Assembly: GCA_004563595.2 (NCBI GenBank)
Contig: CP042461.1
Coordinates: forward strand, 600,001-632,000
Reading direction: 5' to 3'
Source of the DNA: Candidatus Saccharimonadota bacterium
Lineage (GTDB): Bacteria > Patescibacteriota > Gracilibacteria > BD1-5 > UBA6164
Length of the DNA stretch: 32,000 nt
In this document: piece by piece, positions 3,031 to 32,000 of the stretch
Numbering within the stretch: the stretch's first letter is position 1
Layout of the letters: every line of letters starts with the position of its first letter
Program-made: the position numbers and the translations under genes
Notes under the pieces: model-generated
Database searches by the model: none
Seen by the model: only the letters and a program-made list of their open reading frames with translations
What the model was told of the DNA's origin: nothing

Positions 3031-3061
3031 AAAAGATAGATTTATAATCTATCTTTTTTAT
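3031..3061. terminator. Hairpin terminator shared by convergent genes
   Basis: The sequence is aaaaagatagatttataatctatctttttt (stem agatagat/atctatct) with flanking A and T runs. The stop codon of the minus-strand gene (3042-3044) lies inside it. Confidence 0.7.
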
Positions 3062-4103
3062 TTTTTGTATATTCTAGCATATATTTATATCAATCATGCA
3101 CTTCAGTAAACAAAGGAGCCCATTTATTCTCTTTTATAGTATAATTAAAGTGAGAGATTTCTTTTCTATTATGGATTCATTTTTCCATTTCTATTGTTCT
3201 TAGCTGCAGTTCTACTTGTACTTCCTCATTTCTATACGGACTAATATACTTGTAATGTATGCTTTGATATCCGTTTGACTTGGGAGATGTTATATAATCC
3301 TTTTTCTTTGTATAGACACACTTTTCTTCAAATGTTTGTATAAATGCATACAAATCAGGCAAATCATCAAATATTATCCTGACTCAAATAGTATCAGATA
3401 GAGTATTAGAATTTTTCCTTTTCATTTTGTTATACAAGCTGAAGTAAGTTTTTTTTCTTATTTGAATTTTTCATATAACTTTTGCTTCAGTTATTAAGTA
3501 ACTCAGATCATTGATTACTTCAATATGATAGGCTCAAGGTATTTCGTAACTCGTTCATTGTCATAATGTTCATTGCTTAGTAATCTTATATTCTTTTGGA
3601 TATATTTTCTTAAAATAAATATCTTGAAAGAATGCTAATAGTCTTGATTCAGACATAGTTAGGCAGGGGATCATATATCAACATGATTTGTAATAATTTT
3701 CAGTATGTGAAACTATTTTTAAATAATTATCTTCTGATAGGAGAACTGTATAATTAATGATTTCTTTGAATAGAAGCAAATCGGGACTCAATCTCATGGT
3801 AGAATAAGTATATTTTTCAAATTCTCATAGAAGCGTATATTCATAGACTTCTATCATCCTTTTAATATTTTTCCTGTCTCTTTTTTTTAGAATTTTACTA
3901 TCTAAATCAATTATTTTAAAGAAGTAGAGAGCGTATAACAATGAAAGTAATATGTAGTATTCATTATCAGAATATTTCTTAAACCTAATAATAACTATTT
4001 TTATAAGTGATAAATAAGAGGGATCTAATTTGCTTGCATAACTTAATAACAAGCGATTAAATTTATTTCGGTACATTTTATTTTTCAGAATGATCGCTTT
4101 CAT
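3042..4103 (-). CDS. RelA/SpoT-domain nucleotidyltransferase (small alarmone synthetase-like), N-terminal unknown domain, paralog 1 (353 aa)
   Basis: Track ORFs 3825-4103 and 3177-3362 share one frame and are joined through in-frame TGA codons, with no TAA/TAG between them. The C-terminal half carries RelA_SpoT motifs: RKKTYFSLYNKMKRK, DTIGVRIIFDDLPDLY, DYITSPKSNGYQSIHYKY, VELQLRTIEME and SHFNYTIK. The stop is TAA at 3042-3044. Confidence 0.8.
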
Positions 4104-4165
4104 TATTGATACTTTAAAAGACTATATTCTATATATAATAAGAGAAAATAGCTTTTATTCAAAGT

Positions 4166-5230
4166 TTATTTCTGAGGTATTTGCTTTTCTTCCATATACT
4201 TGAGCATATATTTATGTCAGTCATGAACTTCTGTAAATAAAGGGGCCCATTTATGCTCTTTGGTTGTATATGTAAAATGAGAAACCTCATTCCTCTTTTG
4301 AATATTATTATCTATTTCTAGAGTTCTTAATTGAAGCTCTACCAGCACTTCCCCATTTCTATATGGATTAATGTATTTATAATGTATACTTTTATAACCA
4401 TTAGGCTTTGGATTGATTATATAGTCTTTTTTCGATATATAAACAAACTTACTTTCAAAAATATTAATAAATTTATATAAATCAGCTTGGCCATTAAAAA
4501 TAATTCGAACTCAAATACTATTAGAAATAGTGTTACTATTTTTTCTTTGCATTTTATTATATAAACTAAAAAACGTCTTTTTTCTTATTTGAGTTTGTCA
4601 TATAACCCATGCTTCTTTCATCAGATAACTGAGATCATTTACAACTTCAATATGGTAACCTCAGGGGATTTCATAACTATTTCATTTTTGCAAATCAGCT
4701 TTTTTAGTTTCCTTATATTCTTTAGGGTATATTTTTTTGAAATATATATCTTGAAAAAAAGGAAGGAGTCTAGATTCGGTCCATGTTAAATATGGAATCA
4801 TATATCAACATGATTTATAGTATCTACTTGTATTTGATATTATTTTCATGTAGTGATCTTCAGATTGAAGAATCGTAGATTTAATAATAACTTTAAAGAG
4901 TAAAAGGTCGTTACTCAGCTCCATAGTACTGTGCACATATTTTTCATATTCTCATCAGAGAGTATATTCATATACCTCAGTCATTTCTTTAATATTTTTC
5001 CTGTCCTTCTTTGACATTATTGGATCATCTAGATCAACAATCTTAAAAAAGTATAAGGCATACTTCAGAGCAAGAACAACAAAATATTCATTATCTGAAT
5101 ATTTTTTAAAACGAATTATAACTATCTTTACCAGTGACAAATAATGGGGAGCTAAAAAGTCCGAATAGGTACTCAGTACCGCATCAAATTTTTTTTTATA
5201 ATATTTATTCTTCACTATAATCTCCTCCAT
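4166..5230 (-). CDS. RelA/SpoT-domain nucleotidyltransferase, paralog 2 (354 aa)
   Basis: Track ORF 4955-5230 ends in two consecutive TGAs (GG) and continues without TAA/TAG to TAA at 4166-4168 (1065 nt). The motifs are RKKTFFSLYNKMQRK, NSIGVRIIF, DYIINPKPNGYKSIHYKY, VELQLRTLE and SHFTYTTKEHKWAPLFTEVHDG. Confidence 0.8.
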
Positions 5231-5311
5231 TATATTTGCTAACTTAAAATATTATCTTAGGTATTTTAGTGAAATAATATTTTTTTTCAATCTTTTTATT
5301 TTTTAGGGGAG

Positions 5312-6397
5312 TTAATTTTTATGCTTTTTTTCCATGAATTGTAACATATATTTATATCAATCATGGACTTCTGTAAATAAAGGGGCCCACTTGTGCTGTT
5401 TAACTGTGTAAGTGAAATGGGAAACCTCACTCCTATTTTGAATATTATTATCCATTTCTAGAGTTCTGAGTTGAAGTTCTACAAGGACTTCACCATTTCT
5501 ATAAGGATTAATATACTTATAATGTATACTTTGATATCCATTTGGTTTGGGGTTTATTATATAATCTTTTTTTGTTATGTGTACAAATTTATTTTCAAAA
5601 ACATAAATAAATTTGTATAAATCATCTTGTTTCTTAAAAATAATTCTGACTCAAATGCTATCTGAAACTGTATCTCTATTTTTCCTTTGCATTTTATTAT
5701 ATAAACTGAAATAAGTTTTTTTTCTTATTTGAGTTTGTGCTAAAACTTGAGCCTCAGTCATGAGATGACTGAGGTCATTTACAACTTCAATATGATACCC
5801 TCATGGTATTTCATAGTTACTTCATTTTTGTAAGTCACATTTTTTAGTTTCTCTATATTCTTTGGGGTATATTTTTTTAAAATATATATCTTGAAAAAAA
5901 GGAAGAAGTCTTGATTCTGTGAGAGTTAAATAGGGAAGCATATATCCACATGATTTGAAATACTTTTCTTTATTCCATATAGCCCCCATATTTTTATCTT
6001 CTCATAGCAATGCCATGTATTTATCTTCTCACAACAATGCCGAATATTTAAGAATAATATTAAATAACAAAAAATCTTTATCAATATTCATAAGAGTATA
6101 AATATATTTTTCAAAATATCAATTCATAGGGTAAGTATATATTTGAATTACCTTTTTTACCTTTTTTCTATCTCTTTTTGTGATAATAGGGTTACGATAA
6201 TCAATAACTTTAAAGAAACATAAAATGTACTTGAGGGCAAATAAAATAAAATATTCATTATTTGAATATTTCTTAAAGCGGATAATAACGATTTTTAATT
6301 GTGTTAAGTTATTTACACTTAATTCATCTCAATATTTTAGCAATATTGAGTCAAATTTTTTTTGGTATGATTTATTTTTTAATATTATCCCCTCCAT
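5312..6397 (-). CDS. RelA/SpoT-domain nucleotidyltransferase, paralog 3 (361 aa, carries an in-frame 9-aa duplication)
   Basis: The gene runs from ATG at 6395-6397 (MEGIILKNKSYQKKF) to TAA at 5312-5314, 1086 nt, intact under code 25. The motifs are RKKTYFSLYNKMQRK, DSIGVRIIF, DYIINPKPNGYQSIHYKY and VELQLRTLEM. It contains ALLGEDKYM/ALLGEDKNM, produced by a 27-nt tandem duplication at 5988-6041. Confidence 0.75.
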
Positions 6398-6566
6398 AAT
6401 ATTTATTTGATGTTTTAAAATATACTCTCATATCATTCTACTGATAATTACCTTTTTTTCAATAGCTAATCTTTCTTAGGTTATATTATGATAGATAACT
6501 GACCTCAATTTTTGCTTTTTTTATCCATCTGATTATATTGGTGTTATATATTTATAATTATTTTAT

Positions 6567-18923: not shown

Positions 18924-18989
18924 ATATTCACGCTCTAAATTCGAGCACACCTTTAACATAAAATGTTTTACAAAATACTGGAGATTGAT

Positions 18990-20501
18990 ATGAGTGATGC
19001 AACATTGGAAGGAAAAGAAAACAAGGTATTGAAGCTTGATTTACCTGAAGTAAAAGATGTTGATTTACAAAAGCTTGATCAGGGGCAAATTAGCCTTGAT
19101 AAAGAAGATAAAATTAATTCTGATAATGAAGTTAATCTTGAGCCTGAGAAAAGTGAACTTGAGATTAAGCGAGATACTGCTTTGTCTCAAGAAAAACCAA
19201 GCTTTCCGCATGGGTTTTCTGTTCCGGAACAGATGGAGTCAGAATATGATTCATCTCGAGAATTATTGGAGTTTAAGTATGATCCGGAAGATGAGAAAGG
19301 TTTTGAAGAAAAAATAGAATCATTTACTGCTGCTTATATAGTATTAGATGATGCCGCAACTTTAGTAAATAAGCATAAGAAGCTTTTAACAAGGAGATTT
19401 TCTCAATTAGTTGAAAAAGTAGCTATTTCTTCAGATTATAATGAAGATTATGATGCTGCAAAACTAGAATTTTTAGCTTTTTTGTTTCCATCTGATTCTA
19501 ATTCTTCTGAAGGTAGTCTTGAAAAACTGTCTGATGAAGAAAGTGAAGAAAAATGTAAAACTCTTATTGAAGAACTTGATCGTGCTTTTAAAGAAAAAGA
19601 AACTGCAATAAAGAGGGAGAATGCACCATTCAAAGCTATCTATAAATTTAGTTCTGAATTTAAGGAAGCTATTGAAGGAGTTACTCAGAAGCTTACAGGG
19701 GATCTTAAAGCTACACAGGAAAATATATCTAAACGGATTTCTAACCTTACGTATGGTATGATAGGTTTTGGAGTTATTTTTGGTTTAATAATCCTTTGGT
19801 TAGTTATTGTAAATAATCAGATATCTAAATTAAATAAAGATATGGAATCTGTTGAAAATTCTAACATTAACTTTGAAAGTGAAATTACTGAGGCTAAAAA
19901 TAATGCAATTTCTGAAATGAAGAAAGTTGGAACAGCTGAAGCTACTAAGTTTGTAACTGATGTTGTGACTCCAAATACTAACGCTTTTAATAAATTAGGA
20001 GTAGATAAGACTACAGCTTTAAACGAAGCTGTTACTAAGACTGTAAGTGTAGCTAATGGAGAGTTAACAGCATTAGTAACTGAAGCAAAAGAATTTTCTG
20101 TTGTAGCAGGATCATCAGCGTCTGAAGCTAAACAGTCAGCTATAGATGCTACTGCCTCAGCTGGAAGTTCTGAATTAGCAGCAAAAAGTGTTGCAGGAAT
20201 AGTTGATGAAGCTCTATTAAACTCTTTAGGAGATTATAAGAAATTAATTGATGAAGATGGTAATATAATACCAGTAATTGAACTTGTTTTAAAAGCTGGT
20301 AATGTTGCTGAAACTGCATTAAAAAAAGCGACTTTTTCTCAAGTTCGCCTTAACCAGACTGATGATATAATGTCGGCTATACTTACACAAGTATGTTCAA
20401 AAGGGGACTCAACAAAAGCAAAAGTATTAAGAGCGCTTACTTTTGAAATTGGTGACGCATGTAAATTAACCACGAGAGAAATTGATACAAGTACATTGTA
20501 A
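18990..20501 (+). CDS. Single-pass membrane protein with an acidic coiled-coil N-terminus and an Ala/Ser/Thr-rich C-terminus (503 aa); contains no TGA codon
   Basis: The ORF is uninterrupted even in the standard code. I prefer the ATG at 18990 (GGAG at 18980-18983) over the track start at 18963. There is one TM helix (MIGFGVIFGLIILWLVIV). All 22 Gly codons are GGN. The gene has its own consensus promoter and a strong terminator. Confidence 0.8.
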   Translation: MSDATLEGKENKVLKLDLPEVKDVDLQKLDQGQISLDKEDKINSDNEVNLEPEKSELEIKRDTALSQEKPSFPHGFSVPEQMESEYDSSRELLEFKYDPEDEKGFEEKIESFTAAYIVLDDAATLVNKHKKLLTRRFSQLVEKVAISSDYNEDYDAAKLEFLAFLFPSDSNSSEGSLEKLSDEESEEKCKTLIEELDRAFKEKETAIKRENAPFKAIYKFSSEFKEAIEGVTQKLTGDLKATQENISKRISNLTYGMIGFGVIFGLIILWLVIVNNQISKLNKDMESVENSNINFESEITEAKNNAISEMKKVGTAEATKFVTDVVTPNTNAFNKLGVDKTTALNEAVTKTVSVANGELTALVTEAKEFSVVAGSSASEAKQSAIDATASAGSSELAAKSVAGIVDEALLNSLGDYKKLIDEDGNIIPVIELVLKAGNVAETALKKATFSQVRLNQTDDIMSAILTQVCSKGDSTKAKVLRALTFEIGDACKLTTREIDTSTL

Positions 20502-20528
20502 TTTGTATTTAATTACTTTCATAATAGG

Positions 20529-20559
20529 GAAGACCTAGCATTACGCTAGGTCTTTTTTC
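20529..20559 (+). terminator. Rho-independent terminator
   Basis: The stem agacctagc (20531-20539) pairs with gctaggtct (20545-20553) and is followed by a T-run. Confidence 0.85.
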
Positions 20560-20628
20560 ATGTCTAAAATTTGCATTTTTTTAATAAGTAAGTTAAAATT
20601 ATTACATATATTTAATAATTCTAATAAT

Positions 20629-21297
20629 ATGTCAATTGAATGAGGATTAGATTTTACAGAAGCAAGGAATGAAAATAAGTCCTTAGCTGAAATTAGAACC
20701 GAAACTAAAAATAAATCTACTCAACTTAAATCAGATATTAGTAAAGATATTATATCTAAACTAAATAGTAATGAAGGATTAGAAATAAAACAATGAGATA
20801 GTTTGGGATATATTAGTGCATTAACTTTAAAAGGGAATAGTATCAAATGGGATACTCCAGGGAATGCTGATTCTATCTGGCCTGGTGATAAAATTAAAAT
20901 TATTGGAAAAAATGTATTTAGGGATTCAAAATACAATAAAACAGATGAAATGGTTAAGGTTTGAGAGGTAATAAATGGTTATACAAAGATAGAAAAATCA
21001 GAGATAACAGCAGAGGTGTTAGAAGAATTTACACCTTTTGATATTAAGGTTTACTCTGACGATCAAATTCAAACGTTGTCTAGTAAAGTATCGAGTATAA
21101 TTAGTAATGCTCATATTAATAATGAATGATATATTGTTGCTGCTAATTGAAAATACGAAATAACAAATATCGTTTCCAATAAGAATGGTAGCGAAGATAT
21201 ATCGGATACATTGGGGGTAATATTTATTGTTAATTGAAAACATAATTATATATCATTTATAAAACAAAATGTTATTGAAATAACAGAAGAAAAATAA
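20629..21297 (+). CDS. LysM-like domain protein (222 aa)
   Basis: Code-25 ORF of 669 nt. The segment LEIKQGDSLGYISALTLKGNSIKWDTPGNADSIWPGDKIKIIG resembles a LysM repeat (xGDSL..IA...I.PGxKIKI). The rest is unassigned. Confidence 0.5.
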
Positions 21298-21350: not shown

Positions 21351-21382
21351 GTACTTAACATAATATAACTTATGTTAAGTAC
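21351..21382. other. dif-like Xer recombination site (perfect 13-6-13 palindrome)
   Basis: The sequence is gtACTTAACATAA-TATAAC-TTATGTTAAGTac. The right arm TTATGTTAAGT matches the E. coli XerD arm TTATGTTAAAT at 10 of 11 positions. The left arm ends in CATAA, like the XerC arm. The outline ACTT...AAGT resembles the B. subtilis dif site (ACTTCCTAGAATATATATTATGTAAACT). Confidence 0.6.
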
Positions 21383-21519
21383 ATCTTAACCAATTAAAGG
21401 GATAAGTTGTACTCTCACAAATTACATTAATCACATAAAAATATGTGTTTTAAGATTTTTTAAGCCATTACTGGCTGAAATGCTCATTTTTGTACTTTCA
21501 ATGTATATACACTGCAAAC

Positions 21520-21798
21520 TTAGCTTTTTCAGTATCTCTTGGCTTTTCAATCCAGAAAATCCTTATAAGCTGTTTTTGTAATTTTAACTCAAAACATGTT
21601 TCTAATAATATCATATTTTTCTGAGTTATTTGGGCTTATCGGAATTTGTCAGTATTGTTTTTCAAAATCTTTAATATAATTCCACATAAATCATTCAATC
21701 ACACTTGTCATTTCAAGTGGTCAAATTGACACATGGAATTTTTCTTTTAACATTTGTGTGGTACGCAAATTTATAGTTGCGGATTTATATATTTTCAT
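21520..21798 (-). CDS. Hypothetical small protein (92 aa), possibly a DNA-binding regulator
   Basis: It runs from ATG at 21796-21798 to TAA at 21520-21522 (279 nt) and contains 7 in-frame TGAs. The N-terminus MKIYKSATINLRTTQMLKEKF has a strand-then-helix pattern that loosely resembles ribbon-helix-helix proteins. It is transcribed divergently from the 22023 gene. Confidence 0.4.
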
Positions 21799-21964
21799 AC
21801 ACAAAAGCTATATAATAAAGTCGGATTATGTTAAGGATCGGACCTACTATGATTTAAAAATCATTTAGGATACATATAAATTATATTCAGATTATATTTA
21901 AGTCAAATGTTTTTTAAATGGATTATAGGATAAAAATGAGATTTTCCCTATTTAAAGGGATTTG

Positions 21965-21993
21965 TTGACAACATTAAAATAGAATGATATAAT
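21965..21993 (+). promoter_or_regulatory. Perfect consensus sigma-70 promoter
   Basis: TTGACA (21965-21970), a 17-nt spacer, then TATAAT (21988-21993). AAGGAGG and the ATG at 22023 follow. Confidence 0.7.
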
Positions 21994-22022
21994 ATTATTC
22001 TTAATATATAAGGAGGATAATT

Positions 22023-22244
22023 ATGGATTGAAAAGTATTTTTAGATGCAATTATTGCTATGGCAGGTGCATATTTCTTGTTTTTTTGAATATGGTTAATT
22101 TTTACGACAACAGTAGTGTTCTTTACTATAAGATTTTGGAAATTTATGTTTAATATTAAAGATCAAGTGGTAGTTCATGATTATGTGATATATCAAAAAA
22201 TGAAGAATAATACGATAAAAGATATGAGAGGAATAGTGGAATAA
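22023..22244 (+). CDS. Small membrane protein (73 aa)
   Basis: A strong RBS (aaggagg) precedes it. The translation is MDGKVFLDAIIAMAGAYFLFFGIWLIFTTTVVFFTIRFW, i.e. two hydrophobic helices. The stop is TAA at 22242-22244. Confidence 0.6.
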
Positions 22245-22257
22245 ATAAAGAATGAAT

Positions 22258-22470
22258 AAGAGGGAGAGGAAGGAAAATGGTCCTTCTCTCCCTCAATAGA
22301 GAATTTTATTGAGTTTTGGGTCGGTACAAATTTAAATCAAATATTCCCTACGGGCTACCCTTTAATTTAAATTATGACCTAAAGAAGAAGACTTCCCTCT
22401 TTCTTCGCTACGCTACGAAATAAATTGAAGAATAAAAAACTAGCCCCGTAAAGCGTGGGGCTAGTTTTTT
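22258..22470 (+). ncRNA. Candidate structured non-coding RNA (about 210 nt) ending in a strong terminator; family unknown
   Basis: No ORF longer than 15 codons exists on either strand under code 25. Stem-loops follow one another: gagggagaggaagga/tccttctctccctc (22260-22294); ctcaata/tattgag (22293-22314); ggtc...aatttaaat // atttaaatt..gacc (22319-22379) enclosing ccctacgggctaccc; and gaagaag/tttcttc. The terminator is ctagcccc/ggggctag plus a T-run (22440-22470). The strand is inferred from the T-run, but an A-run on the other side leaves it ambiguous. Confidence 0.35.
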
Positions 22471-22505
22471 ATATAAATTCTTTTCGGAATATTTATCTAT
22501 GCTAT

Positions 22506-22534
22506 TTGACTTTAAATATTTTGTAATGTATAAT
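22506..22534 (+). promoter_or_regulatory. Near-perfect consensus sigma-70 promoter
   Basis: TTGACT (22506-22511), a 17-nt spacer, then TATAAT (22529-22534), 58 nt upstream of the ATG at 22593. Confidence 0.7.
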
Positions 22535-22592
22535 TAAGGTGTTAGTCTTAGTTGATTAACTACCACAACCACAAGTTACGGGAAACAGTATT

Positions 22593-22973
22593 ATGAATAG
22601 TGCACAAGTTTTTGATATTTTACGTTCTCAAATGATCTCTTTTTCTTTGAATGAAGATGCATCAATTTCTGTTGGTGATCTGAGTAACATATATAATATT
22701 TATTGGATTGAACCTACTGATACTAGTGAAAAAAATAAAGCACGAATGATGCTTAATTCAAAGAATAATAATATTACTATATTTGAAGAAAAGGGAGTAA
22801 GTAGTGATGATGTAAAAGAATATGTTGTTTTAACAAACCGTATTCGAACTTTCCTTAAACTTGAGAAATATGCTGATTTAATTGACTATATTGAGTCAAG
22901 TGATTTGATTTTCTTTGTGGATGAAGTTTCTATTGAGTTGCTTAAAACTGAGATGAATAAAGTCAACGATTAA
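22593..22973 (+). CDS. Hypothetical acidic protein (126 aa)
   Basis: The ORF is uninterrupted and has no TGA. It has its own promoter and terminator. No motif recognised. Confidence 0.6.
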   Translation: MNSAQVFDILRSQMISFSLNEDASISVGDLSNIYNIYWIEPTDTSEKNKARMMLNSKNNNITIFEEKGVSSDDVKEYVVLTNRIRTFLKLEKYADLIDYIESSDLIFFVDEVSIELLKTEMNKVND

Positions 22974-22994: not shown

Positions 22995-23031
22995 ATCACC
23001 CTGACACATAAGTGTTAGGGTGATTTTATTT
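22995..23031 (+). terminator. Rho-independent terminator
   Basis: The stem atcaccctgacac pairs with gtgttagggtgat (one wobble) and is followed by ttttatttt. Confidence 0.8.
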
Positions 23032-23069: not shown

Positions 23070-23351
23070 TTATAAATTCATAACATTATGAATAGATGCA
23101 TAAAACCAGATAGTCATAATAAGAACACTAAATAGAATCTTGAAATGTCATTCTAGTTTCAGGATTATTAGAAAGATGATCAAAGGAATTATAAGAGTTC
23201 GGAACAAAAAGAAGGGGTAGTCTCAAAGTGTAATAAAATAATTGTACATAGGGTTATACTCCCCTCCTCAGATATTTAAAACAAGCTTGGTGGTAACTGA
23301 ATCTAAAAATGATGTAAAGACTAATCAGATCAATATTAGTTTGTTTTTCAT
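23070..23351 (-). CDS. Phage small integral membrane protein (93 aa)
   Basis: The ATG at 23349-23351 overlaps the end of the Zot-like gene by 16 nt. The protein has three hydrophobic helices (KLILIGLVFTSFL, FFLFRTLIIPLIIFLIIL, ILFSVLIMTIWFYA). Confidence 0.6.
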
Positions 23352-24226
23352 GTGCTTAATAACTTAAGTTTATTAAATAATTTCTTTTTCGGTTTTGCAT
23401 CTTGTGATATTTTAGTGATATACTTATAAATAGATCGTTTTGTGTATATATCAGTTCAAGGACGAATAAGTTCTTTCGTGTTGTAGTCATATACTGGAAA
23501 TATTGGATATAGATTGAGATTCATTCACATAAGAATACCTCATCATACTTGCTCAGCTTTTTCTAAGTCTATTTCTTCTGGGTCTAAGAAGTAAAAGTCT
23601 CTGTACCATCTATAGAATCAGACTCATTTATAGTATTTTCTGTAGTATGTAGCCAGTCTTCTGAATTTCACATCTAATTCCATTGGAGATTGAACTACAC
23701 AGAACATAAGAAGATTAAGTTTTCTTGGTTGATAGATGAAATCTAGGAGTCTTTCATTTTCTCATGAGAAGTTCTTTTTGAAGTTTCTCGGATTAAAATA
23801 TATAGAACATTCATCAAGTACGATATTAAACTTGAGATCCTTTTTTAGGTTTGGGTATTTATTTCTAAACTCTTTTGCATTAAATAGATATTCCTCATAT
23901 TGTTTCCTTGGTTTATGTGTATGTAGCTTCTCAGCATCATCATAGAGGTTTATATATTGGTGATAGTCATAGATGTCATTGAGTATGTTGACGAGATCGT
24001 TATGACTTGATAATTGATAGTCAGTATATCAGGTATAGTAGTTCGTAATATTGATCTCCTTTCAATGTTTACGACCTTTGAGATAAGCAGTGGTATTTTG
24101 TGTTTTTCATGATCAGAACTCTCACATGGTTATAAAGAAACCGTATTTTGTCTTTTTGAAAACGTAATAAGAAAATACTCATAGAAAAGTAGCTATTCAA
24201 AGAAAATATAAGAAAAATTCCAACAT
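23336..24226 (-). CDS. Zot / filamentous-phage pI-like assembly ATPase (296 aa)
   Basis: Walker A is FFITMGEFGSGKTQNTTAYL, with all three Gly as TGA, followed by EINITNYY. Walker B is FNIVLDECSIYFNPRNF. This is the Zot-family P-loop layout. An N-terminal TM helix precedes it. The gene is 891 nt. Confidence 0.75.
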
Positions 24227-24274
24227 ATAAATTTAGTTATGATTTAAATGGTGGCAATTTTTGGTATTTAATAA

Positions 24275-24526
24275 TTATTGAGACTTCATAAATGAAATCA
24301 TTATAGATAGTAAGAATATAAGTATAAGTGAAAGTAGAGAGTTTTGTACTAGGGTTATTGTTGATTGATGAAGAAAATTACTCAAAAATAAACCTATGCT
24401 TATGTTCACATGGTATACGACAAAGGTTAATAAACTAAGTGAGTAATAAGAAACTACTCATACTAGTAATACAAATATAAATATTCTAAAAAAAAGAATA
24501 AAAAACTTAACAACTGCAGTTGTCAT
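24275..24526 (-). CDS. pVI-like small hydrophobic phage protein (83 aa)
   Basis: The ATG at 24524-24526 overlaps the stop of the upstream gene (TAATG). The protein is almost entirely hydrophobic (FFILFFRIFIFVLLVGVV..., LLSLILIFLLSIMISF). It sits between the pIII-like and Zot genes, as gene VI does in Ff phages. Confidence 0.55.
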
Positions 24527-26337
24527 TATTCAGATGGTTTAAAAAATAAAATTAAAGCTCAGACATAAAGTATTCAATATATTAACAAAAACATATAATC
24601 TAATACTGTTTTACTTCAGGGATTTACTTTATATGATTCAAGAGATCAAATCACATTTCATCATGAAGGTATATATTTTTGAAACTCTACTTTATGAACT
24701 ATTCAAAGGAAACAATATTCTTTATTATCCTCAATAGATCAGAAGCTCCCTATGAAATCAAATAATGAGTTCAGGTGTTTTGATAATCATGAGAGTATTA
24801 AGTCTGGTACAAATAGAATTATTTTAAATGCTCGGTTATCAAAAAGTGTAGCAAGTTTATACTCTACATGAAATATATTATTTACGGTATATAAGAACCT
24901 TCAATCAGTATCAAACATTTCACATGTTCATAATTCTTGGTCTTTATAAGTAATACTTCAATATGTTGCTAGGGGTTGTAATAATAAATTATCAGATCAA
25001 GAAAATGATACTGGGCTCCCTTTTAATTTTGAGGCTAATTCTAGTATTTCATTATTCAGGTCTTCAAATGTATATTTCTCTCTTATTTCAAAGTTTGTTT
25101 TTTCATTCCCTATATTATCTAAGCTTCAAGTATAGGTTTCTCAATCAACAGTGATTTCATCAGTATCAAGATTAGAACATACTTCCCTTTCTATAATTTG
25201 TGTTTCTTTGCTTCAGAAGTCTATATTAAATATTTCATTTTCGGTAAACCATGCAGGTATAAATTCTATACAAACGTCTTCCATAGTTTCAAAGTGATAC
25301 TCTTTTCAATATTCTAGGAGTTCCCTTTCTATGGAACTGCTTCAATCACAGCTAATGATATTAAAAGCATTTCAAGTTCATGTGAGATTTACGTAATCAA
25401 TTCAGTAATCAGAGTGTAATTTTAATTGAGGATCATTGTTCCCTATTATATCAAATGAATTGAAGGTAAAGCTTGTTCAAGTACTTGATAAGCTTCAAGT
25501 AAATCACTCTATATCTTCTGCGTTATAGAGTCAGATAGATTCGTTCCCTCATCATCATCTATTATATTGAAAATATTGTCAGTAACTGAGACTATAATCA
25601 TCTATAGTTGTGTGAGATGGTTGATATGAATAACTCAGGTTATATGGTGTATTGATGTATGCTGTCTGACAGGATTGATTTGAAGATCATCAAGATAACT
25701 CTATATGAGGAACTAATGAATTAGTATCAATATCATAAGAATTATTATTATAATATGTAGGAACAATATTATCTGTTATAACAAATCAATTACAAGATGA
25801 AGTACCACTACAAATTAAACTATACACATGTGTAGTCCTATTAATTTTTGCCCAATCATAATTACTAGAATTTGTAAACTTAAGATAAATATAATCATTG
25901 TCAGAACCGAAATACATATATCAAGCTCAATTTGAATTTGTATTATATCTTGATTCAGAATTAATAATATTTCAATCAAAATCCGTCATCTGTAATATTA
26001 AACTTCCCCAAAAAGTATTAAGCCATTGATTTGAATAAGTAATATTTAAAATAAATTCATTATCCAGATCATGAATCATATTTAAAGTACGATTTGAATC
26101 CATAATATCATTAAAATAAACATGACTTCAATCTTTCCAGAGAAAAGTTCAACTTGAATCATAAGCACAAACTTGTTTTGAATTAGTACAATTGGAATCT
26201 GTATATCAAGTTACTATAGAATAATTATCACTTGATAATAATTGAGTAGCACTTGTATAATCTCAATGGGTATTTGATATTCAGAAAACACTCAATGCTC
26301 CAAAGAATAGAAATACTGATAGTATTATTTTTTTCAT
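24526..26337 (-). CDS. pIII-like adsorption/minor coat protein (603 aa)
   Basis: It has a signal peptide (MKKIILSVFLFFGALSVFG) and a long Asn/Ser/Thr/Cys-rich ectodomain with Gly-rich linkers (ELSGGSSNQS, YNRGGGGNES; the Gly are TGA). A C-terminal membrane anchor (YMFLLIYGILYVGALILFF) follows. The gene is 1812 nt with no TAA/TAG. Confidence 0.65.
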
Positions 26338-26555
26338 AGTATTTTTTCTCAAGATGTAAGACTGAAACCAAAGTTAAAAGATAGGATGAATATTTTTATT
26401 AAGGTTTTCATTAGTAAGATTCCTAGGATTGTTATGATGAGAATATAGCTAAAAGTATCCTGATTAATATAGTATGAGTCGTCATATATTTTTATTAATT
26501 CAAGATGATTTTCAGTTAATGTTCATGTTCAAACGAGGTGTATATCTCAAGTCAT
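26325..26555 (-). CDS. Phage small membrane protein (76 aa)
   Basis: It runs from ATG at 26553-26555 to TAA at 26325-26327 and overlaps the pIII-like start. It has one TM helix (FSYILIITILGILLMKTLIKIFIL). Confidence 0.5.
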
Positions 26556-26557
26556 AT

Positions 26558-26725
26558 TTATCTTTTATAGTATAATTTGTAGAAGAAACCGAGTATGAGT
26601 CATACGGGTGCAGCACTTCATATAATCGCAATTATGCTAAAAATAAACACCACAAAAAATGATATGTATATATCAAATCATAAAGCTATATTTGCAAATA
26701 GTGGTCCCATATTCAGTAATTAACA
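26558..26725 (-). CDS. Phage small hydrophobic protein (55 aa), pVII/pIX-like by position
   Basis: It runs from ATG at 26723-26725 to TAA at 26558-26560 (168 nt). The translation is MLITEYGTIFANIALGFDIYISFFVVFIFSIIAIIGSAAPVGLILGFFYKLYYKR. Confidence 0.45.
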
Positions 26726-26734
26726 TAATTAAGG

Positions 26735-26764
26735 TGTAAGGGATTTATTTTACTAAATCCCTTA
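26735..26764 (-). promoter_or_regulatory. Hairpin immediately downstream of the coat-like gene (possible attenuator/terminator)
   Basis: The stem is gtaagggattta / taaatcccttat, 12 bp with a 6-nt loop. There is no clean U-run on the minus-strand transcript. Confidence 0.4.
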
Positions 26765-26782
26765 TGCTCTAACTAGGTTAGA

Positions 26783-27040
26783 CTATGATCTTCAACCTTT
26801 TTTTACAAGGAGCATAATAACACCAATTACGATCATTATTCATAATGCAACCCCTAAATAAGGAAGTACGAATAAGAAACCAGCCCACAGATTTGATAAA
26901 GCATTATCTACTCATGTATCAACAACTGTATTGTCAGATGCATCAAAAGTTACTTTACCACCTGTATATGTTAAGGCAGATGTATATAGTCCTAGTACAA
27001 AAGCTGAGATAGTAGCAAACATTCCGCTAATAAGTCCCAT
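26783..27040 (-). CDS. Major coat protein-like (pVIII-like), 85 aa precursor
   Basis: The translation is MGLISGMFATISAFVLGLYTSALTYTGG|KVTFDASDNTVVDTGVDNALSNLWAGFLFVLPYLGVALGIMIVIGVIMLLVKKGGRS. It has a hydrophobic leader, an acidic N-terminal segment, a hydrophobic core and a basic C-terminus, which is the canonical inovirus coat layout. The gene is 258 nt. Confidence 0.6.
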
Positions 27041-27063
27041 TCTCTTAAACTTAAGAAATAAAA

Positions 27064-27088
27064 AAAAGTAGAGTATTACTCTACTTTT
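27064..27088. terminator. A/T-flanked hairpin (bidirectional terminator-like)
   Basis: The sequence is aaaagtagag-tatta-ctctactttt. Confidence 0.5.
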
Positions 27089-27238
27089 TACATAAAAGAA
27101 TCGCCAAAAACTTCTATGTAAAAAGTAAAGGGCGATTTAGTTTATTTAAGGCAGTGATTATTTTTACTTAGAAAATCACTAAAAACTAATCGAATTTTTT
27201 ATGTATATGTATTGGGATCTATCCGGAAACCCAGTAAG

Positions 27239-27445
27239 TTAAATAAATATGATTGCAGTAATTAAAAGAGGTATTACTACAAAGATAAGTACTATATTTG
27301 TAAACTTTAGAGAGTTGTAAATATCATCTAGTTGATCTAGCTTATTTATAACTCTTTTTTGTAGTCTAATATGAACAAAAGTTTTAACTATTTCTCAAAA
27401 TATATGAGATAGGTCTATTTTGTCCTCTTGTGTTTTCTTAGGCAT
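27239..27445 (-). CDS. Phage small protein with a C-terminal TM helix (68 aa)
   Basis: It runs from ATG at 27443-27445 to TAA at 27239-27241. The translation is MPKKTQEDKIDLSHIFGEIVKTF...NIVLIFVVIPLLITAIIFI. Confidence 0.5.
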
Positions 27446-27456
27446 TTAGTTTTTTA

Positions 27457-27840
27457 TTAAAAAGGTATGTCTTCAATAGTGATTTCTTCTTCTGCTTTCT
27501 GTTGTAACGGTTTTTTACTCGCTCATGCGAATTCTACATTTTGAACGTTGATAGATGTGAAATAGCTTTTATTTCCATCTTCTTTATCAAAAGTAGAGTT
27601 TTCAAGTTCTCATTCTAGGTATACCTTTGTTCATTTTGGTATATATTTCTCAAAGAAGTCAGCTCTTTGTCCCCAAATAGTTAAGTTTATGAAAGTTGTA
27701 GTTTTTACCTCTTCCCCATCTCTATTTTTGTATTTTTTGTTTATAGCAATAACGTTTTTTAAGTATTTATTATCGTTGCTTGTTGTTTTTACTTCACTGT
27801 CTTTGACTATATTTCAAATCAAACATATTCTATTTAACAT
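27457..27840 (-). CDS. ssb: Single-stranded DNA-binding protein, bacterial OB-fold type (127 aa)
   Basis: The translation reads MLNRICLIGNIVKDSEVKTTSNDNKYLKNVIAINKKYKNRDGEEVKTTTFINLTIWGQRADFFEKYIPKGTKVYLEGELENSTF and ends with the canonical acidic tail EEEITIEDIPF. Confidence 0.85.
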
Positions 27841-27944
27841 ATGGTTTTAAAATTAAAAAAAAATAATATATAGCGCTTATATGCCTATATATTATTCATT
27901 TTTATTCGTAAGTCAAATGTATTTTAAATGTAATTTAAATATAC

Positions 27945-28115
27945 TTAACTGTTATTTTTGTAGTTTTGTTTGTATAATTGGATTAATGCGTTTAATTTTT
28001 GTGATCTATTATCAATTTTCATTCCATGAAAATCAACGTCTAGTTCAAAGAATTCTTTTGCTATCTCAGCATCAATAGCGATAGTTGTAAATTTCGTTGG
28101 CGATTTAGTAGTCAT
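27945..28115 (-). CDS. Ribbon-helix-helix-like small regulator (56 aa)
   Basis: The translation is MTTKSPTKFTTIAIDAEIAKEFFELDVDFHGMKIDNRSQKLNALIQLYKQNY. It shows a beta-strand (FTTIAID) followed by two helices, as in Arc/CopG. It is the first gene of the minus-strand phage operon and sits next to a divergent intergenic region. Confidence 0.5.
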   Translation of the reverse strand: MTTKSPTKFTTIAIDAEIAKEFFELDVDFHGMKIDNRSQKLNALIQLYKQNYKNNS

Positions 28116-28340
28116 ACAATATGTATTTAAATAATATTTAGTTATGTAAGTTTATATTATATGAATATTAAATGAATGTCAAATAAAAAGAGTGTTTCAT
28201 AATTTTAATAGATAATCCTATTCCTGATTCTAAAACATATTACAAATAAGTCTAGATAAAATTATAAAAATTTCAAAATATTAAGGTCTTGTTAATGTCT
28301 TATACGTATAATATTTATACTTATTTCATTTTAAAAATAT

Positions 28341-28955
28341 ATGCATAGAAAAATCGAAGCGATTAGAGGTCTAATTAATAATATAGAGAAATTAGAAGAT
28401 TTAGATTTTGACAGTCTTGATAGAATTAAGAAAAAGAGTAATATGGTATTATTAAAAGTTTTTTGAGATGAATCTGCTCATATAAATGGCTTAAAGAATG
28501 CTAATTTTTCAGTTATTTCTTTTACAATTTGAAGAGAAACTCCAATAGGGAGAAAAATAGAGGCTTGGAATAAAGGAAAGAAGAAATTTATTAATACTTT
28601 AGAAGTTTGTATTGATGAGCTAGAATTAGATATATGAGCTAGTGTAATGGAAAAAACACCAATAAAAGAAAGAAAAATGAGTGTTAATATTAAGAATTTT
28701 AATTGAAACTTATCCTGAGAAAATTATTGAACTCAAGAATTTATAAATAGTGGTATTGATGATATAATAGATCAAATTAATGAAAAAAATATTGAATTTA
28801 AAACAGAAATTATAAAATTATTAGAAGAAATTAAATCTGTAAAAGAGCCAGAAGTTAAGTCTAAAAAGTTTTTAGAGGTTATTAATCTTTTGTGATCAGG
28901 TGCTTCAATTAATTCATATATAATGGCTTTAGGTGCTTTTGTAGCAGGTATATAA
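28341..28955 (+). CDS. Hypothetical protein (204 aa) with a hydrophobic C-terminus; first gene of the opposite-strand cassette
   Basis: It runs from ATG 28341 to TAA 28953-28955 (615 nt) with 7 in-frame TGAs. It has coiled-coil-like segments, and its C-terminus SINSYIMALGAFVAGI is hydrophobic. No motif recognised. Confidence 0.55.
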
Positions 28956-29032
28956 TAAAATTTATAGTGATAACACTATAGATTTTATTTGAAAGGTAGA
29001 AGCAATATTCGTAATTGAAATTAATAAATTAT

Positions 29033-30190
29033 ATGAAAAAAAAACATAGAATTAAAATTAAAGCTCAAATACAGGAATTCTCAAGTAGTTTTGTAGAAAC
29101 TTTTATAAAATTACTTATGTCTTTTGAAAGAGTGCAACCAAATATTAGAGAAGCCGTACCTGATATTTTTAATATAGCTTTGGAGGATATTGCAGTTGAT
29201 TCTTATTTCTCTGAAAATAGAAAACATGTAATGATTCTTTTTAAAGAAAGGAAAAATAAGAGTTTTAATTTTAATCTTACAAAAGGTAATGTCTTTGATG
29301 AACTAGATGAAACAGGTCAGTGGAAAAGACCAAATATACCGGTTTGTTTTAATTTTAAAGGTTGAACTGGTTTTATGCAAGAAATAACTATATCTGGTAT
29401 GAAACCTTTCAATATAGAAGGTGATAAAGTAAAAATTACATTCTCAGATTTTAAATTTAATTTGCCAAATGGAGATAATAAAAAGATATCTTTTGGGTAC
29501 ATTTTTTCTTATAGTCTTTTTAAAGATGAAGTTTTAAGTAATACAGAAAACTATGTTGAAAATTTAATTTATTCTTTTTGGGACTATTATAGACTCTATA
29601 AACATAAACTTAGTTCTTCAATTGATGAAAAAAAATATAAAAAATACCAGAAATGAATTTTAGAAGATATGGAAAGATTATTTTTTAATGAAGAAATAAA
29701 AGAACAAGAAATAGATAACTTTATAACAGAAAATCCAATTATTTTAGAAAGGTGCTTATTTCTTACTCCAATATTACCACAACAGATATTAAATAACCTT
29801 GTGAAAGAAAACTTTGATCAAGATATGATACCTGATTTAATATGTCAAGATATTAATGACAGTTGGATAATTGTTGATTATAAAAGAGCAAAAAGAATAA
29901 TTAAGAAAAATGATACAGCTCGTGCAGATATAAAATCTGAGGTAAATGAATTAAAAATCCAACTAAAAAACTATAGAGAATATTTTAATGAAGAAAAACA
30001 TAGGAACAATTTTGCGAAGATCACAGGATATAAAATTCCTTCCAAACCAAAAACAAAATGACTTATAGGGTATGTTTTAGATTCTGAGAGAAAAATATTT
30101 GAAGATTCTATTGAAGATAACCCAAATCGGATTGATATAATTACTTATGATGAACTTTATAAGAGATTTAAAAAGTTTTATGAGTCTTAA
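29033..30190 (+). CDS. Shedu-like (DUF4263 / SduA C-terminal) PD-(D/E)xK nuclease with a novel N-terminal domain (385 aa)
   Basis: Track ORFs 29015-29365, 29375-29656 and 29669-30061 share one frame and are joined by single TGA codons. The C-terminal half reads FITENPIILERCLF...MIPDLICQDINDSWIIVDYKRAKRIIKK...KIQLKNYREYF...KGLIGYVLDSE...RIDIITYDELYKRF. This is the D...(D/E)xK core, the Q..Y motif and the terminal TYD-hL that I recall as typical of DUF4263. The start could instead be TTG at 29015. Confidence 0.6.
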
Positions 30191-30212
30191 ATAATATACT
30201 TATATAAATAAA

Positions 30213-30246
30213 AAAAGGCTAGACTTTCATCTAACCTTTTTTTTAA
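30213..30246. terminator. Hairpin terminator between convergent genes
   Basis: The stem aaggctaga pairs with tctaacctt (one mismatch), with an A-run before and a T-run after. Confidence 0.6.
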
Positions 30247-30419
30247 CCTTTAAAGGTTATCTTGTGGACTATTCTATCCACTCAAAATATATCTCTTGGA
30301 TTATCTCATTTTATGAGATCTCATTTCTTTAGCACTGTGGTTAAATCAAATGAACAATAGTTTTGCTCATCGTAGTGTGTTCAGTCGGCATCAACTGACT
30401 CTATTGCATATTCGTACAT
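30243..30419 (-). CDS. Hypothetical small protein (58 aa)
   Basis: It runs from ATG at 30417-30419 to TAA at 30243-30245 (177 nt) with 4 in-frame TGAs. The translation starts MYEYAIESVDADGTHYDEQNYCSFDL. It lies directly downstream of the structured inverted-repeat region. Confidence 0.4.
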
Positions 30420-30435
30420 AATATAAAAATTGTAA

Positions 30436-30517
30436 AAGGACCCTAGCAGGAAGATCACCACAATCGTACACCTGCTAAGGTCCTTAAATAAGGTGATCTA
30501 TTTAAATACGATTGTGG
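30436..30517. repeat. Compound inverted-repeat element (15-bp stem, with a 20-nt loop that is itself complementary to two flanking boxes)
   Basis: aaggaccctagcagg (30436-30450) pairs with cctgctaaggtcctt (30471-30485). Within the loop, gatcacc (30453-59) and ccacaatcgta (30458-68) are complementary to ggtgatc (30492-98) and tacgattgtgg (30507-17) respectively. Confidence 0.7.
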
Positions 30518-30713
30518 TATATTAGTTATAGCTATAAATAAATTATTTGCAAATTGTTTTTAAATGTAAAATAAATGACGTCACTGGAGTATAGCATAAT
30601 AGTTTTTATAAAAGCAAAAGTTTTTTCGACTTTCTTGGCTTTGTGTAGGTGATATATCGATATTATAAGTACAAATAAACTATTGATTATAATGAAGTGA
30701 TATTAACAGGGCA

Positions 30714-30857
30714 TTAATATTGAGGATTAAAGTAATAATTTCTTTGATAGGTTAATATTACTGAGTCGAACTTTTCGTCTCATGGGAGGAATTCTTGAGT
30801 GGTATATTGTTTATAGCTTTCTAATGTAAGATTTGGTACTTGTGTTTTTAAAGACAT
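30714..30857 (-). CDS. Hypothetical small protein (47 aa)
   Basis: It runs from ATG at 30855-30857 to TAA at 30714-30716. The translation is MSLKTQVPNLTLESYKQYTTQEFLPGDEKFDSVILTYQRNYYFNPQY. It is supported only as an ORF in the phage operon. Confidence 0.35.
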
Positions 30858-30858
30858 G

Positions 30859-30960
30859 TTATAAATTAAATAATACTTTAAATTTTTCTATTGAATCAAC
30901 TCCATTCATTCATAGATACCACCCTATTGATGTATAGAATAGTATATTTATCAAGGTCAT
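30859..30960 (-). CDS. Possible very small ORF (33 aa)
   Basis: It runs from ATG at 30958-30960 to TAA at 30859-30861, which abuts the next ATG. The translation is MTLINILFYTSIGWYLGMNGVDSIEKFKVLFNL. Support is weak. Confidence 0.2.
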
Positions 30961-31043
30961 TAATGTACTAGACGTAAAGTCACTTATGAATTCTCAGAAT
31001 TGTATTATGAGAAACTCTCAATAAGTTCATATGTCTGGATCGC

Positions 31044-32000
31044 TTAAGCACTTATCACATTTCACTTTTTTTCATAGGATTTCTTTCATAATTTAATTTT
31101 AGGTTTTATAGTATATTTCTTTAAGATTCTATTAATTATAGATGCTTCAAGTCATTGTTCTTGTAAATATATGATTAAATTTTCTAGTAGATCATATCAA
31201 TTAAATAGTTTTCTATTCACAAGTTTGAATTGTTTCACATTATATCATTTACTTTTAGCATATTCATATTGATATAAGCTAGTTCTATCTCTTATAGTCT
31301 CTTTTGATTCTTTTTGAACTCATAGAACGGTATCAAAGAGTCAAACATATCATGTATTATTTTGAATAGTTTTTAAATATCAGTGTGACCTAGAGAGATA
31401 ATCTTTTGGAATATGTCAGTGCTGTAAATAATAACTTTTTAGATCAAATTTTACGTTAGTATATTTTTTGAGCTCTATATCTTTGTAATGTAACTCGTGT
31501 TCTGTATATCTATTGAAGTATTTTGTAAATATTCTTTGAATAGGTTTATTTCTATTCTCTAATATATCAGAGATGGAGAAATCTGTTATTCTTTTACATT
31601 CTTCGGGTCTGAGTTCTAGTTCAATTCTTCTTACATCATGATTATGTATGAGGTGAGGATAGAGGAATCATTTTTGTTTTTTCCAGGTATCAAGTATTTT
31701 ATCATAAACTCTAAATAGAAATTTACGGTTTGAATTACTTTGTGGATTATTGATATAGTAGGTTTGACTAAACTCAGGGTGTTTTTTGTCATTTCATATT
31801 TCAGAAAAGAAATTTACGTCTTTGAGGAGTTGGGATTTAATCTTTTTAATATCATAGGGTAAATCTATAGCAATATCTAACCTGTGTAAATCTGTTTTAT
31901 CATCTGTGAAAAATGCTTCATAGAATTCTTTTATGGAGAAATCTAGTTTGTCGCTCTTTTCTAAAACAAAAAAAGTAGAATAAAAAACTACTTTATCTTT
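31044..32000 (-). CDS. Rolling-circle replication initiator, Rep_trans family (RstA / pT181 RepC-like); the N-terminus lies beyond the window
   Basis: The frame is open from the window edge to TAA at 31044-31046 (957 nt). The motifs are DLHRLDIAIDLPYD, then NRKFLFRVYDKILDTWKKQ and HDVRRIELELRPEECKRI. This matches the RhDhAhD ... hRhYDK ... hRhEhEhR pattern of replication initiation factor proteins. Confidence 0.7.

Follow-up and report, generated by a model that had tools for sequence, protein, structure and literature searches.

A probable filamentous-type prophage at a dif-like site in a Gracilibacteria chromosome that decodes TGA as glycine

Whether a filamentous phage can reside in the chromosome of a bacterium that reads TGA as an amino acid, written in the code of its host, is the question raised by the locus described here. 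It lies in a 32,000-nucleotide stretch of DNA (the window; positions 600,001 to 632,000 of contig CP042461.1, assembly GCA_004563595.2) from the Gracilibacteria lineage BD1-5, in which an earlier inspection of the letters, hereafter the sequence-only reading, had proposed an inovirus-like prophage at 23070-32000. The follow-up analysis points to an integrated filamentous (inovirus-like, Tubulavirales-type) prophage of ~11.3 kb in a chromosome that decodes TGA as glycine, and I put the probability of this reading at about 0.85. The host appears to be the one published as a closed 1.343-Mb Gracilibacteria genome with a G+C content (GC) of 28.87% from an oil-degrading microcosm, in a paper that mentions no prophage (Sieber et al., 2019; PMC6851277).

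The window has a GC of 27%, and the number of open reading frames (ORFs) of at least 100 amino acids rose from 12 with TGA as a stop to 59 with TGA as a sense codon. All three glycine positions in the Walker A motif GEFGSGKT of a Zot-like ATPase are encoded by TGA, conserved glycines of ThyA (GDLGPVYG, FLGVPFN) are likewise encoded by TGA, and about a dozen columns in an alignment of 37 homologues mix glycine (GGN) with a TGA-derived tryptophan, the latter coming from database entries that had been translated with code 4. The three lines agree, as the sequence-only reading had stated, that TGA is glycine, neither tryptophan nor stop, which is genetic code 25, and the homologues of the phage genes carry the name Candidatus Gracilibacteria. 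Most Logan/ENA protein entries of the clade (P0002-P0064) are translated with TGA as tryptophan, so that the Walker A motif, for example, appears as MWEFWSWKT; this alone would suffice to hide them from family profiles. Such entries were corrected to glycine for alignment A2, while structure models and searches of representative sequences were based on entries that already had glycine at TGA (P0001, P0054).

The element extends from ~21381 in the window to ~32640-32720, i.e. 640-720 bp past the window end, and the start proposed at 23070 was consequently moved to include three further small genes. Its right part was also found on an independent 9,471-bp Logan contig (L007), which was reached via the full Rep protein (P0041, 422 amino acids), is identical to 23247-32000 and runs 717 bp further, thereby supplying the Rep N-terminus that the sequence-only reading had expected beyond position 32000. 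L007 stops at 32717 because of the flanking repeat described below; its other end at 23247 falls inside the DUF5658 gene and might mark either a variant within the population or the point where a longer duplicated stretch ends.

Read on the minus strand, the core genes follow the order Rep, small proteins, single-stranded DNA-binding protein (SSB), small membrane protein, 85-amino-acid coat-like protein, small membrane protein, pIII-like protein, pVI-like protein, Zot/pI-like ATPase and DUF5658 protein (Table 1). This module order, together with the small size and the absence of any tailed-phage family, is that of inovirus-like phages (Tubulavirales): capsid, portal and terminase families gave no match in any element ORF in Pfam, PHROG and other family scans, no secretin is present in the element, as had been claimed, and family scans of 21381-32717 found no recombinase gene. 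All 17 element ORFs are intact, with no frameshifts or internal stops, and the tight overlaps are kept, amounting to 1 nt between the pIII- and pVI-like genes (TAATG) and 16 nt between the Zot-like and DUF5658 genes, both as stated earlier, 13 nt between the gene for a 76-amino-acid protein beside the coat gene and the pIII-like gene, and 46 nt between Rep and the gene for a second 76-amino-acid protein. The element has a GC of 27.2%, against 28.0% for host DNA. With TGA taken as a sense codon, every minus-strand gene listed in the sequence-only reading forms an intact ORF, but its description of an all-minus-strand region holds for the core genes only, since a plus-strand pair at 28341-30190 interrupts the series; this pair and the DUF5658 protein 3' of Zot had both been left unmentioned. 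The claim that every gene uses TGA was not borne out: g22560 and g27945 contain no TGA codon and the Shedu gene of the plus-strand pair only three. Expressed as a share of glycine codons, TGA makes up 76% among phage core genes and 59% among those of the host, compared to 3 of 13 in the Shedu gene.

Three independent lines place the ATPase in the Zot/pI family. Its Walker B region weakly matched PHROG 1675, 'protein I of M13' (E 4e-5). A profile built from code-25 homologues matched 151 proteins among 1.84 billion representatives, and Pfam Zot was recognised in 41 of the 62 distant full-length matches, with a best E of 1.7e-22. Finally, the AlphaFold model (predicted local distance difference test, pLDDT, 78) had the N-terminal domain of Neisseria Zot (2R2A) as its best PDB match in Foldseek (E 5.5e-4, probability 1.0), followed by HerA, and its top matches in BFVD were 'Zonular occludens toxin [Inoviridae sp.]' (4.8e-9 and 1e-7). 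The sequence-only reading had thus named the right family, although the Pfam profile by which it was to be checked gave no match to the protein; Pfam Zot was reached by only two of 17 code-corrected homologues (E 0.011). The DUF5658 gene is kept 3' of Zot in four related loci (L001, L002, L006, L009), and its product may be the partner of the assembly ATPase in the membrane. A hairpin between this gene and the convergent g22560 likely terminates both the core operon and g22560.

The motifs RLDIAID, QTYYI...FRVYDK and VRRIELELR of Rep are invariant in 22 homologues, and the invariant QTYY contains a candidate catalytic tyrosine. Two types of Rep occur among the relatives, and the motifs are common to both. 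The predicted structure of the homologue P0054 (46% identical, pLDDT 72) matched solely chains A-D of 4CIJ, the Geobacillus rolling-circle initiator RepSTK1 (E 5e-5 to 9e-5, probability 1.0; next match 0.15), which I take to be a member of the Rep_trans family. A Rep_trans-like fold is accepted on the basis of this model and the motifs, although the family-profile test with PF02486, suggested by the sequence-only reading, failed. An extra C-terminal helical domain of ~150 amino acids was modelled with low confidence. The SSB proposed earlier was borne out by clear family matches (Table 1) and occupies the gene V position. The 405 nt 5' of Rep fold as single-stranded DNA significantly better than shuffled sequences (z -3.4). 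A noncoding block in this region is common to L007 (1-405, equal to 32313-32717) and to a locus of another species (L002, 2100-2418), whose phages have 46%-identical Reps; it consists of a T-run, a hairpin ending in TCCTTACAACTTT and then an unusually GC-rich stretch (GCTTTCCAnTGC ... GAAAGTCCTTTTAnTTG), and is a candidate plus-strand origin, leader or packaging region.

The 85-amino-acid protein shows all four features of an inovirus major coat protein (leader, acidic part, hydrophobic core, basic tail), a match by features only, as Pfam and PHROG searches revealed no homology with coat families already known. Homologues with 46-64% identity occupy the same position in six related loci (L001, L002, L003, L008, L009, L018), and the hairpin reported after the coat gene was found directly behind its stop codon. 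In relatives, the C-terminal ~150 amino acids of the pIII-like protein are kept while the N-terminal part varies. The coat-, pIII- and pVI-like proteins had no match in Pfam, PHROGs or GenBank phages. Nor did the coat- and pIII-like proteins match any cellular family; such a match is what the sequence-only reading had named as counting against it.

On its left side the element abuts a 28-bp dif-like site, which the sequence-only reading had placed nearby. A scan with this 28-mer, leaving two positions open, returned 21 metagenome contigs, all TGA-recoded and with a GC of 19-34%, in which the site was exact in 20 of 21 and had one mismatch in the other. The 28-mer is the best candidate for dif because it is unchanged while MurD is only 39-50% identical, has an 11-6-11 architecture and resembles what I take to be the E. 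coli dif core; it is probably the functional chromosomal dif. Contigs with visible flanks have FtsH-DedA-(phosphatase)-MurD to one side of it and PilT to the opposite side, and in L036 and L037 only ~100 bp and 235 bp lie on the two sides of the 28-mer. Homologues of the phage genes were absent from all 21 contigs. The contigs thus represent empty sites and show that the block is no core locus, which answers the comparison with genomes lacking the insertion that the sequence-only reading had called for. The bases around the 28-mer are not conserved across contigs (L021-L041), yet they extend the palindrome by 5-8 nt each, e.g. gttttacatc ... gatgtaaaa; since these changes are compensatory, they suggest that the 28-mer also folds into a hairpin or cruciform, or serves murD and pilT as a terminator in both directions.

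A direct repeat flanks the element, and its right copy is cut by the end of L007, the final 30 nt of which form an identical stretch. As a k=31 assembly graph leaves such a 30-nt identical end when a repeat continues, the repeat probably extends further than 80 bp. At 32640-32667 of the extension lies a hybrid site with the spacer and one arm preserved and the second arm degenerate (TCCCCACATGC), so that the element has a full and a partial dif-like site at its ends, as dif-Xer elements do, with the intact site on the murD side. L002, from another species (19% GC; Zot 79% and MurD 56% identical to those of the window), has the order RuvC, PilT, phage (Rep...Zot, DUF5658), dif-like site and MurD, and its element is flanked by a 14-nt direct repeat comprising one arm and 3 nt of the spacer. 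Integration at dif by the host Xer recombinase would fit these flanking sites. A second dif-like sequence (ACTAAACATAA-CAGGAG-TTATGTTAATA) was observed at L007 157-184 (equal to 32534-32561), ~80 bp from the hybrid junction site, with which one of its arms could pair in single-stranded DNA, a configuration that recalls the folded attP of CTXphi.

Table 1. Features of the window and of its extension on contig L007 (aa, amino acids; TM, transmembrane).
Feature	Position	Strand	Characteristics
Ordinary chromosomal genes	1-21300		RelA_SpoT x3, UvrD-type helicase-nuclease, DHFR, ThyA, FtsH, DedA/VTT protein, metallophosphatase, MurD
dif-like site ACTTAACATAA-TATAAC-TTATGTTAAGT	21353-21380		11-nt arms perfectly complementary, 6-nt spacer; left junction (attL)
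Direct repeat, 80 bp, 5 mismatches	left 21358-21437; right 32638-32717 (extended sequence)	plus (left)	copies 11,280 bp apart
Small basic protein, 92 aa	21520-21798	minus	ORF; 6 TGA codons; between att site and assembly genes
Membrane protein, 73 aa	22023-22244	plus	one TM segment; opposite to core genes
Acidic protein g22560, 126 aa	22593-22973	plus	no TGA codon; convergent with core operon; weak PADLOC match to type II restriction enzyme, E 6e-4
Hairpin	22995-23024		GC-rich, 13-bp stem; between convergent genes
DUF5658 membrane protein, 93 aa	23070-23351	minus	2-3 TM segments; Pfam PF18902, E 6e-7
Zot/pI-like morphogenesis ATPase, 296 aa	23336-24226	minus	N-terminal TM helix, Walker A GEFGSGKT, Walker B FNIVLDE
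pVI-like hydrophobic protein, 83 aa	24275-24526	minus	2 TM segments; features and position only
pIII-like adsorption protein, 603 aa	24526-26337	minus	40 TGA codons; signal peptide 1-23, Gly-rich stretches, C-terminal anchor 577-602, net charge -43
Single-TM protein, 76 aa, candidate minor coat	26325-26555	minus	kept beside coat gene in relatives
Hairpin	26721-26780		27-nt arms; directly after coat stop codon
Major-coat-like protein, 85 aa	26783-27040	minus	hydrophobic leader, acidic N-terminal part (4 acidic:1 basic), hydrophobic core ~35 aa, basic tail KKGGRS
68-aa protein, candidate minor coat	27239-27445	minus	C-terminal TM segment; by features
SSB, bacterial-type, 127 aa	27457-27840	minus	acidic ...EDIPF tail; Pfam SSB 1.8e-27, PHROG 44 1.6e-32, NCBIfam ssb 1.6e-27
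56-aa protein (g27945)	27945-28115	minus	no TGA codon; weak homologues between Rep and coat gene in five relatives
204-aa protein	28341-28955	plus	upstream of Shedu gene; PADLOC candidate defence family PDC-S35, E 1e-7
Shedu SduA-like nuclease, 385 aa	29033-30190	plus	Pfam SduA_C PF14082 27.8 bits (cut-off 27), PADLOC SduA 2.4e-10
76-aa protein	30859-31089	minus	ORF; overlaps Rep end by 46 nt
Rolling-circle initiator (Rep), Rep_trans-like fold	31044-32000 (cut by window end; full gene to 32312)	minus	422 aa, C-terminal 318 in window

The att site is separated from the assembly genes by an accessory or regulatory segment (21520-22973) of three small genes, two of which are on the opposite strand, in the position that the variable or regulatory region beside attP takes in VGJphi. 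The plus-strand pair within the core carries a Shedu gene, as the encoded protein is SduA-like with a DUF4263/SduA_C domain. From the low use of TGA among its glycine codons, the gene seems to have come recently from a donor with the standard code. A cell using the standard code could correctly translate Shedu, g22560 and g27945, a hint of recent import.

Outside the element the window holds ordinary chromosomal genes, with no host Xer gene among them. Three tandem paralogues of ~355-387 amino acids (3042-6475, minus strand) each apparently have a RelA_SpoT nucleotidyltransferase domain, which was matched in Pfam for the one paralogue tested (1.2e-19), with the other two similar by eye. A triplicated small-alarmone-synthetase-like gene is unusual in a 1.3-Mb genome, and the products could be synthetases of a toxin or defence type. 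Two genes without a family match, encoding a 512-amino-acid coiled-coil membrane protein and a 245-amino-acid protein, lie between murD and the dif-like site (18957-21297); this stretch may be another insertion, because in some relatives murD and the site are only ~100 bp apart.

The Zot profile detected 13 loci in 12 species-representative genomes, all of them metagenome-assembled genomes (MAGs) of Gracilibacteria or so-called 'Peribacteria' with a GC of 20-55%, so that relatives are found solely in Gracilibacteria-type genomes. All 13 loci keep the order Rep-like ... coat ... pIII ... Zot while their surroundings differ, and two copies that differ from each other (L018, L019) occur in a single MAG, a distribution that fits a mobile phage lineage rather than a core locus. 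The absence of an integrase, as claimed in the sequence-only reading, holds for the copy in the window but not for many of its relatives: ten loci have, at ~1 kb beyond Zot, a gene for a Xer-like tyrosine recombinase (NCBIfam XerC 1.3e-52, below the cut-off), which is present neither in the window nor in L002. In a related element (L003, 4499-4879), the product of a gene between Rep and coat has an N-terminal methylation motif like that of type IV pilins (Pfam N_methyl 1.2e-8). L001 (8.4 kb), with a terminal overlap of 14 nt, was considered as a circular genome and rejected, as the contig ends inside the recombinase gene.

A scan of IMG/VR with the Zot profile found no relative, and 50,697 GenBank phage records contained one weak match for Zot (E 0.6), with Rep and pIII unmatched. 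Roux et al. [quoted passage not shown] The prophages of code-25 Gracilibacteria in Liu et al. (2023) are backed by portal, tail-related, terminase or integrase genes, filamentous phages being never mentioned, and a 2025 preprint still cites only the nine detections of Roux et al. In line with the sequence-only reading, no filamentous phage of this bacterial group was found in the literature searched, as far as the accessible parts of these sources go. The element is a new, very divergent inovirus of an already known dif-integrating kind, and it is missed by standard phage searches.

Among known systems, VGJphi has the same annotated order, comprising Rep, an ssDNA-binding protein, minor, major and minor coat proteins, adsorption protein, pVI-like and Zot/pI-like proteins, a variable opposite-strand region and att. 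VGJphi and CTXphi (Inoviridae that exploit XerCD at dif) likewise lack an integrase, insert at a dif-like site and leave an intact site on one side, and their Rep, like that of the element, is of a Rep_trans-type fold, RstA being a Rep_trans protein. In contrast, there is no detectable sequence similarity between the element and these phages, and the element is written in code 25 and has a CPR host. It further differs in having a bacterial-type SSB with an IPF tail instead of a gene V-type protein, a Zot membrane helix that is N-terminal, an extra DUF5658 protein, a Shedu cargo and a length of 11.3 kb compared to ~7 kb. The Plectroviridae of Mollicutes (Spiroplasma, Acholeplasma) are filamentous or rod-shaped phages of wall-reduced, low-GC hosts with recoded TGA and have no secretin. 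The element resembles them in being of filamentous type, in its low-GC host with recoded TGA and in lacking a secretin, but TGA is tryptophan there (code 4) and glycine here. The CPR inovirus-like sequences of Roux et al. (2019) are likewise inovirus-type prophages in CPR contigs, whereas Pfam Zot is blind to the clade of the element, which has no relative in IMG/VR. Among Rep_trans rolling-circle initiators (pT181 RepC/RepD family; RepSTK1), the predicted fold of P0054 is like that of RepSTK1, with three conserved motifs including the tyrosine-containing QTYYI, but the element Rep falls below Pfam and PDB-profile detection and has the additional C-terminal domain. With Shedu (SduA, DUF4263 nuclease) the cargo protein shares the SduA_C domain; it differs in sitting inside a filamentous prophage, in an unrelated N-terminal half and in an upstream 204-amino-acid partner from a different candidate defence family, its defence role being predicted.

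Each refuting condition named in the sequence-only reading was examined, and none overturned it. Several results weigh against the prophage reading. The Zot-like protein had no direct match in Pfam or NCBIfam, and its profile gave generic P-loop matches only when compared to PDB sequences. Rep had no Pfam match at E up to 1, whether as the window fragment or as full-length homologues, and no NCBIfam match, its profile found nothing among PDB sequences, and the modelled structure is that of a homologue with 46% identity rather than of the window protein itself. Alignments built here were not significant in hhalign against single VGJphi Zot and Rep sequences, although the RxDxAxD motifs of the element Rep and the VGJphi Rep were nonetheless paired. 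The coat-, pIII- and pVI-like proteins were assigned solely by size, position and physico-chemical features. At the DNA level, the right junction was seen only in L007, an independent short contig ending inside the repeat; a 37-mer from this junction was absent from the metagenome collection, and look-ups via g22560 and g21520 yielded no sequence reaching it. Moreover, both dif-like cores are followed on their right by ~57 bp with 94% identity, which would not be predicted from simple Xer insertion into a naive site and which may point to an array or to a remnant of older date, and in L002 the spacer has a different polarity with respect to the phage than in the window.

Virion-like proteins without sequence homology to known virion proteins could also belong to a non-viral integrative element, i.e. 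a rolling-circle plasmid or another Xer-exploiting element that by chance encodes an ATPase of the membrane along with proteins that are secreted or membrane-bound, and Rep_trans initiators are common on plasmids. Such an element is very improbable given an ATPase whose fold is closest to phage Zot/pI and whose distant relatives are Pfam Zot proteins, and given a Rep-ssb-small-coat-small-adsorption-pVI-pI order that agrees with inoviruses gene by gene, together with the coat-like layout. Low GC, recoded TGA and the near-equal GC of element and host could speak for a core host locus, or for a Mollicutes plectrovirus read with code 4, but both are scarcely credible: TGA aligned with GGN glycine in Walker A, ThyA and homologue columns rules out the code-4 reading, the empty sites rule out the core locus, and the homologues are named as Gracilibacteria. 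The extent of the repeat beyond the dif-like core (at least 57 bp at 94% identity, more than Xer needs) and the Xer-like recombinase gene near the end of Zot in most relatives would favour a different route of integration, namely homologous recombination via the repeat of at least 80 bp or the action of a recombinase whose gene lies past the end of the window, instead of host Xer at dif. I consider this route unlikely, as the junction falls exactly at the 28-mer spacer, the right site being TCCCCACATGC-TATAAC-TTATGTTAAGT, L002 shows a like pattern with a repeat of just 14 nt, and the recombinase of the relatives lies on the Zot side, which is fully visible in the window and holds none. The element may, alternatively, be a cryptic or domesticated remnant that no longer replicates or assembles and is kept by chance or for its cargo (Shedu, SSB), as this copy lacks the recombinase or excision gene of ten related loci; CTXphi-type phages, however, are active although they have no integrase. 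A remnant would also agree with the lack of a prophage report in the genome paper (PMC6851277). Set against 17 intact ORFs with preserved overlaps, a full canonical gene set and an intergenic region that is structured as single-stranded DNA, this alternative seems quite unlikely.

For the prophage reading, a lifecycle may be sketched by analogy with Ff, CTXphi and VGJphi. The Rep_trans-fold initiator would nick a plus-strand origin in the structured region upstream of Rep, and the bacterial-type SSB would coat the resulting single strand, the phage genome presumably being single-stranded DNA. The small membrane proteins, the 85-amino-acid major-coat-like protein and the pIII-like adsorption protein would make up a filamentous particle, and the pVI-like protein, the N-terminally membrane-anchored Zot/pI-like ATPase and the DUF5658 membrane protein may assemble it and extrude it without lysis. 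The absence of a secretin is expected if the host, as is assumed for the envelope of CPR bacteria, has a single membrane. The prophage sits at the dif-like site between the murD side and, judging from relatives, the pilT side, with the hybrid site beside the Rep-proximal intergenic region, and would have been integrated by the host Xer recombinase; the accessory or regulatory segment lies beside the att site, and the inserted opposite-strand cassette with the Shedu nuclease is cargo. Present-day activity is conceivable. A more far-reaching version, in which the element is the founding member of a still-active, family-level lineage of filamentous phages that is restricted to code-25 Gracilibacteria, has a divergent Rep_trans initiator, is extruded through a single membrane without a secretin by the pI-like ATPase and DUF5658, hijacks dif between murD and pilT, possibly forming arrays, and spreads Shedu-type defence, is offered as a tentative proposal with somewhat less than even odds.

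As episymbionts, Gracilibacteria and related code-25 bacteria have hardly been brought into culture, if at all, and few of their phages are known, all of them tailed in the literature searched. An inovirus lineage in these hosts that is invisible to standard pipelines (Pfam Zot, IMG/VR, GenBank phages) suggests a systematic gap in detection. The 28-bp sequence, exact across genomes in which MurD is 40-50% identical, provides a candidate dif site for the group that aids in finding replication termini and Xer-exploiting elements, and the presence of Shedu in a filamentous prophage adds to the evidence for defence cargo on small chronic phages. As filamentous phages are readily engineered, the element, if active, would be a starting point for a genetic vector in Gracilibacteria and other intractable CPR bacteria.

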